DNA of 24,601 nucleotides from Chlamydiales bacterium (GTDB lineage: Bacteria; Chlamydiota; Chlamydiia; Chlamydiales; JBDQID01). The stretch spans positions 1-24,601 of the forward strand of contig JBLFWS010000034.1 of assembly GCA_047611865.1 (NCBI GenBank). The letters are read 5' to 3'. The notes under the pieces were generated by a model. It saw only the letters and a list, made by a program, of their open reading frames with translations, was not told the DNA's origin and ran no database searches. A program made the translations under genes and the position numbers. Below, piece by piece: positions 1 through 9,785 of the stretch. Position 1 is the stretch's first letter; every line of letters starts with the position of its first letter.

Positions 1-126
1 TTCGTTGGAATCCGGACAAACTGCAAGGTGGAGCTTTCTCCAAGTGCGCCGTTTACTATATCCATGCTGCCGAACCTTCCATTCACCTTCCCCATATACT
101 TTCAAACCAGTTGAGTCAATCACTAA
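1..126 (-). pseudogene. IS5-family (IS903 group) DDE transposase fragment; N-terminus deleted, continues off the left edge of the window
   Basis: Minus-strand translation of 126..1 gives LVIDSTGLKVYGEGEWKVRQHGYSKRRTWRKLHLAVCPDSNE, matching the IS903 transposase signature (IDSTGLKxxGEGEWK...RRxWRKLHLAV) around the first catalytic Asp. An in-frame stop at 133-135 and no start codon in between show the 5' part is missing. Not in the ORF track. Confidence 0.93.
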
Positions 127-127
127 A

Positions 128-454
128 GAAGTTCATCGTCACTTGGGACCGGGTTTACTTGAATCAACTTACGAAGCCTGCCTCAGTTATGAGCTAAGAC
201 TTAGAGGGCTAAAGGTGGAACAGCAAAAGTCTATGCCTATCATTTACAAAGATGTAATGCTTGAGTGTGGTTATCGTTTGGATTTGATCGTAGAGAACCA
301 AGTAATTGTGGAAATAAAGTCCGTGAATGAATTTGCTCCCGTTCATGAAGCTCAAATGCTTTCCTACCTTAAGCCACGCGGTGGAGGAAGAGGTCTTCTT
401 ATAAACTTCAATGTAAAGTTGTTGAAGAATGGTATTCGCCGGATGAAAATTTAG
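128..454 (+). pseudogene. GxxExxY family protein (PD-(D/E)XK nuclease-like), 5'-truncated
   Basis: EVHRHLGPGLLESTYEACL carries the GxxExxY motif, followed by YRLDLIVE, VEIKSV, HEAQMLSYLK and GLLINF. The first 41 codons of ORF 5..454 are the antisense of the transposase fragment, so the native N-terminus is lost. Confidence 0.88.
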
Positions 455-456
455 CC

Positions 457-505
457 TCTCTCTGTGTTCTCGGTGAACTCGGTGGTTGATTAATGCAACA
501 ACGCC
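457..505. mobile_element. Right end of the GxxExxY-carrying element: 3 x 9-mer repeat arm plus IS903-like terminal inverted repeat
   Basis: 457-487 TCTCTCTGTGTTCTCGGTGAACTCGGTGGTT matches the MITE right arm at 4962-4992 at 28/31. 491-505 TAATGCAACAACGCC matches the reverse complement of the MITE left TIR GGCGTTGTTGCATAA at 14/15. Confidence 0.88.
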
Positions 506-532
506 ATGCCAGACGGGGAAAATGCATGGCAG

Positions 533-562
533 AAATACAAGTTTGAGCCCGAGTGTGGTATA
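533..562. repeat. Degenerate right end of a TATACC...GGTATA palindromic element
   Basis: AAATACAAGTTTGAGCCCGAGTGTGGTATA resembles AAATCACAGGTTTGATACGAGATTGGTATA at 19449-19478. Confidence 0.5.
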
Positions 563-645
563 AAACGTATAATGTCATCTACTTGCCTTAGCATGCGGAG
601 ATTTATGCGCTTCAACAGTCAACAAAATCTTCGGCCCAAAAATTA

Positions 646-669
646 AATTCTTGAACTTGTTTCGGTATA
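646..669. repeat. End of a small dispersed repeat; inverted copy at 9369-9392
   Basis: AATTCTTGAACTTGTTTCGGTATA versus the reverse complement of 9369-9392, AATTCTTGAATTTGTTTCGATATA (22/24). Confidence 0.7.
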
Positions 670-751
670 AGCTCGACCGAATTTATTCTTTGTCCACGGC
701 TATCAATACTTTCGGTGGAAAATAAATTCATCGAGAGTGGAGTTTTTTTAT

Positions 752-779
752 TTGACTTTTCTTAAATATTTGCTACGTT
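752..779 (+). promoter_or_regulatory. Candidate sigma66/sigma70-type promoter for nqrB
   Basis: TTGACT (752-757), 16-nt spacer, TACGTT (774-779) preceded by TG; about 35 nt upstream of ATG 814. Confidence 0.35.
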
Positions 780-813
780 GGGTGCAAATTTAACTCGATT
801 TGGGTCCCCAATC

Positions 814-2340
814 ATGTTGCGAAAAATTCTGGATTACAAACTGTCCTTTTTTGAGAAAGGAAAGCCCTTACATCCCTTGCGCCCATTTATTTCTGCTGCA
901 GATGCATTTTTTTATGAAGTTCCTGAAAACACTCATAAGGGACCTCATATCCGCGATGCAGTAGACTTAAAGCGATGGATGATAATGGTCATATTCGCAT
1001 TGATTCCATGCATACTTATGGCTATATGGAATACCGGATTGCAAAAATTTGTCTATGCGGGCAATGACTTTTCCTTGATGAATGAATACCTAGCGGCTTC
1101 AACATCTTTTGATGGTTACCTCGGCTTTGCGGCCAAGGACAATCGATTTCTGGAGATTCTAAAGCTCGGATCTATGGCCTTCTTTCCAGTAATGATTATT
1201 TCCTACGCAGTAGGGGGATTTTGGGAAGGTGTATTTGCCTGTGTCAGAAAACATGAAATAGCAGAGGGCTTTTTGGTTACAGGGATGCTATATCCCTTGA
1301 TTTTGCCTTCAACAATACCCTACTGGATGGTTGCTGTTGGTGTTTCTGTAGGAGTCATTTTGTCCAAAGAGCTATTCGGTGGGACAGGAATGAATATTAT
1401 GAACCCAGCATTAGTGTGCAGGGCTTTTTTATTTTTCAGTTTTCCTAACAAGATGTCTGGAGATGTATGGGTTGGAACAAATCCAACTCTTGTGTCGCAG
1501 AGTGTTTCTAAAATGAATTTAGATGCTGCAGAGTCTGGATATGATGGTTTTGCGCAAGCTACTCACTTAGCGGTATTCAATATTTCTGAAGAAGTTAAGC
1601 GTGTTCATGTTGATGCCATAGCTTCAAACAATGTCGGTGCTGATGTAGGAACTTTTGGAATAGTGCAAAGGCATTTTGATAGGTGGAACTCTCTCGGAGG
1701 TCATGATGCAACACTTGGACAGCTTACTTCCGAGCAAACAAGGAATTTCGTGACTTCTCCTATAGCGGAGGGCGGACTTGCTTTAGCTCCTGAAAATTAC
1801 CAGGCCGCTTATGAATTTTCTTCGCTTAACTATGGAATAGGGCACAATAGCGATGCTACATTATTTTTTGGAGACATGCTGGGGTCCATGGGAGAAACTT
1901 CCGTGCTAGCCTGTCTTCTTGGAGCTTTTCTCTTGATATATTTTGGGGTAGGTTCCTGGAGAAGTATGCTGGCAGTAACGTTAGGAGCCCTTGGTACAGC
2001 ATTCTTATACCAGTTCGGAGCAGAAAATCTAGGATTTGATGGCGGAGCGTGGAATCCAGCTAAATACGCATTGCCTGCCTATAAGCACCTCCTGATGGGG
2101 GGGCTGGCTTTTGGACTGGTATTTATGGCGACCGATCCGGTTTCTTCTCCTTCGATGAACTCGGCAAAATGGATTTATGGGCTGATCGTAGGCGCTATTG
2201 TAATTGTCATTCGAACAATTAACCCGGCATATCCCGAAGGGACTATGTTGGCAATCTTGTTGGGGAATGTTTTTGCTCCCCTAATAGATCACTACTGTAT
2301 TCGAAATTACAGGAGAGTACGTCGTGTCAGAGCAACCTAA
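814..2340 (+). CDS. nqrB: Na+-translocating NADH:quinone reductase subunit B
   Basis: PHIRDAVDLKRWM, EGFLVTGML, KELFGGTGMNIMNPAL, GSMGETS, FMATDPVS and NPAYPEG motifs; contains a long chlamydial-type insert. ATG 814 preferred over TTG 778. Confidence 0.96.
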   Translation: MLRKILDYKLSFFEKGKPLHPLRPFISAADAFFYEVPENTHKGPHIRDAVDLKRWMIMVIFALIPCILMAIWNTGLQKFVYAGNDFSLMNEYLAASTSFDGYLGFAAKDNRFLEILKLGSMAFFPVMIISYAVGGFWEGVFACVRKHEIAEGFLVTGMLYPLILPSTIPYWMVAVGVSVGVILSKELFGGTGMNIMNPALVCRAFLFFSFPNKMSGDVWVGTNPTLVSQSVSKMNLDAAESGYDGFAQATHLAVFNISEEVKRVHVDAIASNNVGADVGTFGIVQRHFDRWNSLGGHDATLGQLTSEQTRNFVTSPIAEGGLALAPENYQAAYEFSSLNYGIGHNSDATLFFGDMLGSMGETSVLACLLGAFLLIYFGVGSWRSMLAVTLGALGTAFLYQFGAENLGFDGGAWNPAKYALPAYKHLLMGGLAFGLVFMATDPVSSPSMNSAKWIYGLIVGAIVIVIRTINPAYPEGTMLAILLGNVFAPLIDHYCIRNYRRVRRVRAT

Positions 2341-3244
2341 AACAGTTAGCAATACACAAACACTTACCTTTATGGTGGTTCTGTGTACTACTTGTGCCAT
2401 GATACTAGCTGTTCTGGCAACTTCTTTAAGAGAGAGGCAGGAAAAGGCTGAGGAGTTAAACCGCAGTCAGGAAATGCTTATTGCAGCTCACGTATTTAGT
2501 CCCGAAGGAGTTTTTTATGTTCTGGATGATAATGGGGAGTATGTTTCTGCAAAAGTACAAAGAGAAGGCGTTTTAGTCCCTTCACAGGAAAAGACTTACG
2601 CAAGTTCTGACGAAATTTTTGATATTTACCAGCTGCGTACCAATGCGTTTCTTGTTAATTCAAATGGTGAAAGACTAACATTCGACGAAGCAGGGATTGA
2701 TAAGGGTGACTACATCTCTCAAAACATGAAAAGTGGGTATGCAAATCTTCCGTTGAAACTTGTTTATGAAGTATCACCGAATGGTATTCCTGCAGGTAAG
2801 ATGCAAGAGGGTAAGATTGATGCAGAGGCTTATATTATCCCTGTAAAAGGTTTTGGGCTATGGGATGCTATATACGGTTATATCGCCTTTAAGTCCGATG
2901 GTGACACCGTTATTGGAACTGCATGGTATGATCATAAAGAAACCCCTGGCCTTGGGGCTAATATTGCCAATCCTGTGTGGCAAGGGCAATTTCCAGGCAA
3001 AGCATTGTTTCTAGATGGTGCTGGTTCCAAAGATGTGGCGCCTCTTGGAATTACTGTCGTACGAGGTAAGGCAAATGAAGTTTTTGCCGGATCTCTTAGC
3101 AAGGAAAAAAGTGCCGTGGATGGAATGGCAGGAGCCACACTGACTGGCAATGGGGTAACCAAAGCCTTCAAAGATTCTTTAGGGCCTTACAGGGAATTTC
3201 TGATGATCCTAAACGATTCTTATTTGACTAAGAAACAACCTTAA
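2324..3244 (+). CDS. nqrC: Na+-NQR subunit C
   Basis: N-terminal TM helix, GFGLWDAIYG, HKETPGLGA and the FMN-attachment motif DGMAGATLT; RBS AGGAG upstream of the GTG start. Confidence 0.95.
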   Translation: MSEQPKTVSNTQTLTFMVVLCTTCAMILAVLATSLRERQEKAEELNRSQEMLIAAHVFSPEGVFYVLDDNGEYVSAKVQREGVLVPSQEKTYASSDEIFDIYQLRTNAFLVNSNGERLTFDEAGIDKGDYISQNMKSGYANLPLKLVYEVSPNGIPAGKMQEGKIDAEAYIIPVKGFGLWDAIYGYIAFKSDGDTVIGTAWYDHKETPGLGANIANPVWQGQFPGKALFLDGAGSKDVAPLGITVVRGKANEVFAGSLSKEKSAVDGMAGATLTGNGVTKAFKDSLGPYREFLMILNDSYLTKKQP

Positions 3245-4766: not shown

Positions 4767-4782
4767 TTTATGCAACAACGCC
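4767..4782. repeat. Isolated IS903-like right terminal repeat
   Basis: TTTATGCAACAACGCC is the exact reverse complement of GGCGTTGTTGCATAAA at 4824-4839. Confidence 0.85.
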
Positions 4783-4823: not shown

Positions 4824-5033
4824 GGCGTTGTTGCATAAAACATGCGTCTACAAGAGGCTTATGATTAAAATTTAACCACCGAGATCACAGAGGGCACAGA
4901 GAAAATAAAAAATCACGGATCAGTTGATAGCATATTCTGAGAGACTTTATGCATTTTTCTATCTCTCTGTGTTCTCGGTGCTCTCAGTGGTTAAATAAAT
5001 GATTGTAAACGTATTAAATTATGCAAAAACGCC
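4824..5033. mobile_element. 210-bp MITE copy 1, IS903-like ends, 9-bp target duplication
   Basis: TIRs GGCGTTGTTGCATAA and TTATGCAAAAACGCC; flanks GATTCATCT (4815-4823) and GATTCACCT (5034-5042); internal inverted arms at 4870-4913 and 4953-4996; about 95% identical to 9576-9785. Confidence 0.93.
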
Positions 5034-9575: not shown

Positions 9576-9785
9576 GGCGTTGTTGCATAAAACATGCGTC
9601 TACAAGAGGCTTATGATTAACATTTTACCACCGATATCACAGAGGGCACAGAGAAAATAAAAAATCACAGATCAGTTGATAGCATATTCTGAGAGACTTT
9701 ATGCAATTTTCTATCTCTCTGTGCTCTCGGTGCTCTCTGTGTTTAAATAAATGATTGTAAACGTATTAAGTTATGCAACAACGGC
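9576..9785. mobile_element. 210-bp MITE copy 2, IS903-like ends, perfect 9-bp target duplication
   Basis: TIRs GGCGTTGTTGCATAA and TTATGCAACAACGGC; CATATTGGA at both 9567-9575 and 9786-9794; 11 substitutions relative to copy 1 by manual count; same orientation as copy 1. Confidence 0.95.

Follow-up and report, generated by a model that had tools for sequence, protein, structure and literature searches.

A two-gene IS903-group insertion sequence with a GxxExxY gene and its deletion derivatives in a Chlamydiales genome

IS903B, a member of the IS903 group within the IS5 family of insertion sequences (IS), carries one gene, and its reference element (L081) is 1,057 bp long, has an 18-bp repeat that is perfect, and is flanked by a duplication of 9 bp. 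IS that hold passenger genes are termed 'transporter IS' (tIS) in the ISfinder literature, and in Tn7 the DDE transposase TnsB works together with TnsA, a PD-(D/E)XK nuclease which cuts the second strand. Here, an IS remnant at the start of contig JBLFWS010000034.1 of a Chlamydiales bacterium (assembly GCA_047611865.1) is compared with these systems. The window, i.e., the whole stretch of DNA that was analyzed, comprises positions 1 to 24,601 of this contig, which is C34 of an assembly with 3.59 Mb in 272 contigs. The contig begins at window base 1, and other contigs are numbered in the same way. With high confidence, window positions 1-505 are the right-hand part (505 bp) of a non-autonomous, 1,030-bp copy of an IS903-group IS of ∼1,556 bp; this copy was inserted in the spacer upstream of nqrB, where 9 bp were duplicated.

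The parent IS shares with IS903 and IS903B the subfamily of the DDE transposase, similar terminal repeats and a 9-bp target duplication. In contrast to the single-gene, ∼1.05-kb layout of IS903B, it is ∼1,556 bp long and has a second, divergent gene that encodes a GxxExxY protein, as well as three CACNGAG words inside each end. Like a tIS, it contains a non-transposase gene inside the inverted ends which moves with the element, but here the extra gene encodes a protein of predicted nuclease fold, has diverged in step with the transposase and is accompanied by matching repeats at both ends. GxxExxY therefore looks more like an integral part of the element than like a random passenger. As in Tn7, one mobile element encodes both a DDE transposase and, next to it, a protein of putative PD-(D/E)XK fold; however, the searches described below gave no sequence or fold match of GxxExxY to TnsA, and joint action in cleavage would be an analogy only. 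[quoted passage not shown] Unlike a MITE of usual miniature size, it measures 1,030 bp and carries two recognizable gene remnants, i.e., it is a deletion derivative.

For PDDEXK_3, the large Pfam family to which GxxExxY was assigned here, the function is given as 'Unknown' where the family is listed in Pfam's source paper (PMC3424549), and GxxExxY appears as an incidental annotation in the part of PMC8934634 that names it. In the literature on both family names, on IS903 and passenger genes, and on Chlamydiae with IS5 and MITEs, no published link of GxxExxY or PDDEXK_3 to insertion sequences was found. The GxxExxY gene and the CACNGAG arrays as parts of an IS903-group IS appear to be new; such a description was not found in this literature. 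In the two-gene IS, a widespread protein family whose function is unknown is linked to a transposition system that is already known.

The IS copy at the start of the window

The minus strand of the window, read from base 126 down to base 1, translates into LVIDSTGLKVYGEGEWKVRQHGYSKRRTWRKLHLAVCPDSNE, which contains ...TSLVIDSTGLKVYGEGEWKVRQHGYSKRRTWRKLHLAVCPDSNE; the translation of window 1-510 and the list of open reading frames (ORFs) agree on this. The 42-aa piece matches Pfam DDE_Tnp_1 (E 3.7e-6, 27.3 bits, cut-off 23) and NCBIfam NF033579 'IS5 family transposase' (E 9.2e-15), the latter below the whole-protein cut-off, as expected of a fragment. From base 128 on, the plus strand reads EVHRHLGPGLLESTYEACL... 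up to a stop codon at 452-454, and positions 128-451 match PDDEXK_3 (131 bits) and TIGR04256 GxxExxY (137.9 bits, cut-off 35; profile positions 12-115 of 116). Judged by these matches, the identity of the two halves as transposase and GxxExxY is far above chance. The sequence-only reading had proposed that the plus-strand ORF at 5..454 is a back-to-back chimera of the two genes, and this was confirmed by the translation and by the Pfam and NCBIfam profiles, with the GxxExxY frame starting at 128. In this ORF (149 codons), the first 41 residues come from antisense transposase (5-127), and the GxxExxY remnant continues in the same frame; the chimera is most likely not a gene and should not be annotated as one.

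Window 1..127 was observed to be 100% identical to C57:17746..17872, inside the intact 319-codon ORF of an IS5-family (IS903-group) DDE transposase. When the element is numbered from its left inverted repeat (E1 = C57:17221), this internal fragment on the minus strand corresponds to E526-652 and comprises codons 122-163 (126..1) and the last base of codon 121 (base 127). It holds the first catalytic Asp, D125 in VIDSTG, which is invariant in an alignment of 27 transposase sequences. Window 128..505 corresponds to E1179-1556. The junction that joins E652 to E1179 lies exactly between bases 127 and 128, and zero letters are common to both partners, i.e., there is no microhomology. The missing stretch, E653-1178, amounts to 526 bp of the parent: from the transposase, codons 1-120 and most of codon 121 are gone, from GxxExxY codons 1-32, and between them the spacer. 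By element coordinates, the window copy has a length of 1,030 bp. An earlier proposal that a deletion had removed the divergent 5' regions of both genes was borne out by contigs C100 and C37, on which the undeleted layout is preserved.

On the plus strand, the 5'-truncated GxxExxY gene (128..454; PDDEXK_3, putative PD-(D/E)XK fold) retains codons 33-140 and the stop codon. All family-invariant residues from V34 on are kept, and the start codon and an own promoter are missing. It is followed by three CACNGAG heptamers with a 9-nt period at 460..484 on the minus strand (inward: CACCGAG, CACCGAG, CACAGAG), which have a mirror array at the left end (C57, C180). The IS903-type right terminal inverted repeat (TIR) occupies 486..505 on the minus strand, reads GGCGTTGTTGCATTAATCAA from the end inward and has 15/18 letters as in IS903B. 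Directly next to it, the right copy of the 9-bp target-site duplication, ATGCCAGAC, is located at 506..514.

As had been predicted from the window, a second copy of ATGCCAGAC exists. It was observed at bases 311-319 of C180, on the opposite strand, directly before the left inverted repeat GGCCTTGTTGCAC, and C180 is the only one of the six left-end contigs (C57, C124, C29, C180, C219, C13) at which this was the case. The 9-mer itself is found at 25 places when both strands of the assembly are counted, which is about the number predicted from its length; only one occurrence adjoins a left end. Because ATGCCAGAC adjoins the left inverted repeat of C180, this contig is placed as the left neighbor of the window, and C180 and C34 can be annotated as neighboring contigs. 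With the right end at 486-505, the left end on C180, matching 9-bp duplications and a transposase without codons 1-121, the window copy has the structure of a non-autonomous IS derivative. The flank on C180 contains a large ORF pointing away from the element, for which no Pfam match was obtained in the first 400 residues. On the window side, nqrB is encoded at 778-2340 (NQR2_RnfD_RnfE, 314 bits), and within 778-3244 a gene overlapping the nqrB end is presumably nqrC. The IS copy is located in the divergent spacer, with ∼270 nt between it and the downstream nqrB, and could influence the nqrB promoter.

A single internal deletion of 526 bp without microhomology took away the shared promoter spacer together with both 5' ends, and may have arisen by illegitimate recombination or by a replication error. 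Because the spacer and both 5' ends are deleted, neither gene of the window copy can work. Since both ends are intact, a transposase supplied from another locus could still mobilize the copy in trans, and the same may apply to the MITEs. The fragment itself is ordinary IS decay at a contig end.

The deletion need not have occurred at this site. It is quite possible, although less likely than not, that an already deleted 1,030-bp derivative moved here in trans, which would be a variant of the explanation given above and not a contradiction to it. This would agree with the presence of both ends and a perfect 9-bp duplication at the window copy, with the perfect duplication CTGTTGAAC that also flanks the 659-bp derivative C124:8474..9132 (E1-431 joined to E1329-1556 with 1-nt microhomology), and with the 59 MITEs described below, which show that gene-less derivatives do move. 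However, the junction was found once in the assembly and at about single-copy depth in public runs, and no sister copy with the same breakpoint was seen in either.

The second alternative concerns the assembly. Exactly 127 nt are shared with another place by 215/544 contig ends, and 239/544 share nothing of at least 40 nt; the 127-nt class indicates that the assembly was made from a k=127 graph. As the window starts at a contig end of such an assembly, with 1..127 as the overlap node at which the contig ran into a repeat, the length of 127 nt of the transposase fragment was set by the assembler and not by biology, and the transposase remnant almost certainly runs on leftward past the contig end. 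Sequence support across position 127, which had been named as a check on the junction, was obtained from three public runs labelled as ice metagenome (X1-X3, k=31 Logan contigs), in which 85-88% of the words sampled from window 1-700 are present. In each of them a 60-nt contig was observed that corresponds to window 98..157 with 0 differences. A length of 60 nt, with 30 on each side, is the expected product of a k=31 graph for a junction between two repeats. The depths of these junction contigs were 77.3, 7.7, and 9.6, compared to 67.1, 7.93, and 12.3 for the single-copy flank contig (478..1000). The transposase piece 1..127 had depths of 264.7, 30.8, and 41.7, i.e., 3.4-3.9 times the flank, which fits with four copies extending into this gene region (C57, the window, C37 and C100). 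Loose contig ends at 127 and 128 represented undeleted continuations, as expected from the other copies. A fourth run (X4), with a small share, gave 3 records on the window and none at the junction.

These data make it very unlikely that the junction is an assembly artefact, in which a spurious link in the k=127 graph would hide a locus that really contains an intact element. Such a link might be suspected because the fragment at the contig end has exactly the assembler's overlap length of 127 nt, because an exact repeat of 130 nt inside the element is in common with C37, and because C57, on which the matching sequence is located, terminates with a poly-G tail resembling sequencing noise. An assembly chimera is nevertheless unlikely, since the junction contigs are present in all three k=31 assemblies at close to single-copy depth. 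Furthermore, the only 127-mer of window 1-375 found in other contigs is that at base 1 (within window 1-700, only those starting at 1 and at 376-379), no alternative left extension from 128 is present in the contig, and four other loci have the same type of back-to-back fusion with different breakpoints.

Some observations weigh against the interpretation of window 1-505 as part of a deleted IS copy at the nqrB locus. The interior of the window copy from E311 to E525 is missing from the assembly, and a complete 1,556-bp copy is found on no single contig of the source genome, so that the length is a composite of two copies. Window 376-505 is identical to the copy on C37, and because of these 130 nt the link from the junction to nqrB depends on how the assembler resolved the repeat; the interior assembled in the window presumably belongs to the nqrB locus. 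The junction contigs have 30 letters per side, one below the 31 needed to count as bridging, contig depth is not a copy number, the three runs are perhaps from one campaign and one of them is perhaps the source sample of the assembly itself. Positions 332, 356, and 375 carry the letters of other copies in the run contigs, which is not decisive, as such contigs drop minor variants.

The parent element and its relatives

The sole complete transposase ORF assembled in the source genome comprises 319 codons on the minus strand of C57 (17278..18234) and matches NF033579 (287.5 bits, cut-off 140), PF13737 (116.2 bits) and PF01609 (73.5 bits). On C100 and C37 the undeleted arrangement could be observed, in which the transposase N-terminus (minus strand) is followed by a 68-bp spacer, a complete GxxExxY gene of 140 codons on the plus strand and, as the end, TTAATGCAACAACGCC. 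Window 128..507 is a dispersed repeat that recurs at C37:663..1048 (97.7%) and C100:12114..11735 (98.2%), with partial copies on C124, C141, and C29. C57 covers E1-1087 and C100 covers E769-1556; their 319-bp overlap is only 97.8% identical, and they are therefore different copies, from which the parent length of ∼1,556 bp was pieced together. The ends of the element are long imperfect inverted repeats (left GGCCTTGTTGCACTATTCCACCGCCGAGATCACAGAGGACACAGAG..., right GGCGTTGTTGCATTAATCAACCACCGAGTTCACCGAGAACACAGAG...). The C57 copy terminates in GGCCTTGTTGCAC and sibling copies in GGCGTTGTTGCAT, which is the terminus of the MITEs, so that the relation between the TIRs of an intact transposase copy and the MITE ends, which the sequence-only reading had left to be checked, was found to hold. 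The parent is an IS5-family, IS903-group IS with two divergent genes, one for a 319-codon DDE transposase and one for a 140-codon GxxExxY protein, inside inverted ends.

The individual copies show further changes. In the C100 copy both candidate ATG starts of the transposase are altered (to AGG and ATA). On C37 (128-511), 151 bp round the transposase start (E877-1027) are swapped for 384 nt with inverted repeats of their own (GAGCTAAAGCACGGGGCTAT..., CCACGGTAGTGGC motifs), which is possibly a different small mobile element. On C57 (18300-18373), ...TTTATGAA is followed by CGCC and 62 nt with long G runs at the place where the GxxExxY gene and the right end are expected. Nothing else in the assembly matches this contig end, which represents either noise at the tip of the contig or a copy whose right part was lost.

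With plasmid genes annotated as 'IS5-like element IS903B family transposase', the transposase shares 44% identity across 96% of its length. The right end agrees with the repeat of the IS903B reference element in 15/18 letters, and on C57 and C180 the left end belongs to this type as well. Together with the ∼18-bp IS903-like ends and the 9-bp duplications, this bears out the earlier assignment of the fragment to the IS903 group, and the element is a structural variant within this group of the IS5 family.

Relatives were collected by a scan of one genome per species, from which the best 80 of 580 transposase relatives were kept; the counts of transposase loci in this and the next paragraph refer to these 80. 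The closest relatives, with 69-78% identity, are found in metagenome-assembled genomes (MAGs) of Waddliaceae and other Chlamydiales. A GxxExxY gene is present in 13/80 loci. All 13 belong to the 14 loci whose transposase identity is at least 67%, and in the remaining one (L012) the transposase is 5'-truncated. Among the 66 loci with an identity of 58% or less, none contains a GxxExxY gene. At L001-L010 and L016 the GxxExxY gene is located divergently upstream of the transposase. Copies at these 11 loci, within and between two MAGs, are alike only from GGCGTTGTTGCATAAATC... to ...GATTACGCAACAAAGCC, which defines a 1,563-bp unit with IS903-like ends, and eight of them have perfect 9-bp duplications (exceptions L001, L008, and L016). 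Because the copies are alike only within this unit and are flanked by 9-bp duplications, the GxxExxY gene and the transposase gene move as one element. The ends of L002 were set by comparing copies, as a simple inverted-repeat finder failed or gave chance matches there; for the same reason the ends of L024, L025, L026, L036, L052, L062, and L068 were not used. Eight relatives without GxxExxY (L013, L014, L017, L018, L051, L053, L056, and L076) are ordinary elements of 1,055-1,128 bp. Their ends are of the GGCCTTGTTGCGTAA type and measure 15-18 bp, except for L017 (37 bp), and perfect 9-bp duplications were found in 6/8.

The two-gene IS is conserved at ∼70% protein identity in at least three lineages. 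Among the source genome, L002 and L011, the number of nonsynonymous substitutions per site (dN) is 0.24-0.30 for GxxExxY and 0.20-0.27 for the transposase; only dN is given, as synonymous sites are saturated between IS lineages. Both genes are maintained by selection and diverged in step. In a Waddliaceae MAG (L022, CAVYRW010000004.1:1700778-1706711) the GxxExxY gene of a two-gene IS is in two pieces ∼1.4 kb apart, and another insertion is probably located inside this gene.

GxxExxY is a gene of the IS and not a host gene that happens to neighbor an IS. That it would be a resident host gene, truncated by an IS903-type element or a rearrangement and next to the transposase by accident, is hardly credible: other genomes of the phylum do have GxxExxY genes without any transposase (transposase within 1.5 kb in 0/29 non-own loci), but an insertion would leave an IS end at the junction, which instead is the internal transposase codon 121, in C100, C37, and the Waddliaceae copies the inverted ends enclose GxxExxY and 9-bp duplications flank the whole two-gene unit, and window 128-505 is a dispersed repeat with 94-98% identity on C37, C100, C124, and C141.

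Deletion derivatives and MITEs

Besides the window copy and the 659-bp derivative on C124, a further fusion is present on C29, where a direct repeat of 10 nt, ATAAACTTCA, connects E484 with E1452 and the right end is broken. C135 and C83 hold older fusions of a diverged subfamily, and C82, C43, C49, and C8 contain GxxExxY remnants which are bounded by the same type of terminus and by heptamers. The window copy most likely represents one step in a series of internal deletions (1,030, 659, and ∼579 bp) toward the ∼200-bp MITEs. At C13:18002-18189 an element of ∼190 bp has the right-type end of the IS itself on one side and the left-type end on the other, which makes it the smallest derivative of exactly this IS; no 9-bp duplication was found in its flanks. 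The GxxExxY remnant at C141:1610-2139 has a right arm that is split by an insert of ∼265 nt with a long GC-rich hairpin (GCGGCAGTCCTCTGCCGC ... GCGGCAGAGGACTGCCGC).

The source genome was searched for MITEs with a 210-bp copy from the window (4824..5033) as query. In total, 59 full-length MITEs of ∼200-210 bp were identified. Their 9-bp duplications have at most one mismatch in 48/59 and are perfect in 33, and the other 11 have at least two mismatches, some of them visibly offset by one base. These elements have the terminal 13-15 letters of the IS and its heptamer array, with ∼26-37 extra bases between the two. Judging from these shared ends, the MITEs are members of the IS's family and, because of the extra bases between terminus and heptamers, not simple deletions of the window copy. 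The earlier suggestion that the fragment comes from a transposase of the family whose ends the MITEs carry was upheld by the 59 elements with the same termini. The motif GGCGTTGTTGCAT occurs 6 times in the window compared to 0.46 expected. Two complete 210-bp MITEs are located in the window at 4824-5033 (duplications GATTCATCT/GATTCACCT) and 9576-9785 (CATATTGGA/CATATTGGA), and a solitary MITE-type end is found at 4770-4782, 41 nt before the first of them.

The GxxExxY protein and the CACNGAG arrays

In an alignment of 26 GxxExxY sequences, V34, H35, L38, G39, G41, E44, Y47, E54, Y72, D84, E94, K96, Q108, G121, and F126 are invariant. The window remnant retains all of these residues, while codons 1-32 and the start codon are gone. 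The pattern fits a putative PD-(D/E)XK active site formed by D84 and E94-x-K96. The predicted structure is confident (pLDDT 88.3). Searching the GxxExxY sequence against solved structures gave 0 matches at E up to 1, and Foldseek with the model gave no match at E up to 0.001. The best neighbors in VIA-align (Z 7.9-7.0) have restriction-endonuclease-like, Cas4 or Hjc-type folds, and at the level of the model these neighbors confirm the general nuclease fold and not the function. Pfam returned only PDDEXK_3 and a sub-threshold Cas4 match. The TnsA family was neither among the Pfam matches (E up to 0.01) nor among the 50 fold neighbors listed, and a family outside this list is not thereby excluded. 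A predicted complex of transposase and GxxExxY obtained a score of 0.00 with a mark of 0.32, which counts neither for nor against binding.

Two to three CACNGAG words with a 9-nt period are found just inside the ∼20-bp terminal repeat at both ends of this IS and of L002. The genome-wide density of the word is 0.18 per kb per strand, and no such words are present in the first 90 nt of either end in 8/8 IS903-group relatives without GxxExxY. By analogy with TnsA, it can be speculated that GxxExxY is a working part of the IS, i.e., a nuclease or DNA-binding protein that would recognize the CACNGAG arrays and might cut the second strand or otherwise control transposition; this role is considered rather unlikely at present. 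If it were true, it would be the first physical tie of GxxExxY/heptamer cassettes to known transposition machinery, and the protein family would gain a candidate substrate and a testable role. The natural series from a two-gene IS to gene-less MITEs in one genome is a simple system for asking what GxxExxY does at the heptamers.

TIGR04256 was detected in 46 of 150 genomes of the phylum. Among the 29 non-own GxxExxY loci returned, none has a transposase within 1.5 kb. CACNGAG arrays are located on both sides of the gene in 11/29, on one side in 2/29 and on neither side in 16/29, and L092 is the only one of the 13 array-bearing loci with an IS903-type terminus adjoining the array. A GxxExxY cassette of the form arm-gene-arm exists by itself in the phylum. 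It shares with the IS described here the gene family and the heptamer word, which is again arranged in inverted arrays, but lacks a transposase within 1.5 kb and also, apart from L092, a terminus of IS903 type. In the lineage studied here, GxxExxY and the arrays are built into an IS903-type element and the arrays enclose the transposase gene as well. An arrangement in which a complete arm-gene-arm cassette is nested inside the IS was considered and dropped, as the third, internal arm between the two genes is absent and only one loose CATAGAG word is found there. The one GxxExxY paralogue without IS-type termini or CACNGAG arrays is truncated (C96:700-873, 44% identity) and adjoins a long simple repeat of the GGAGAG type.

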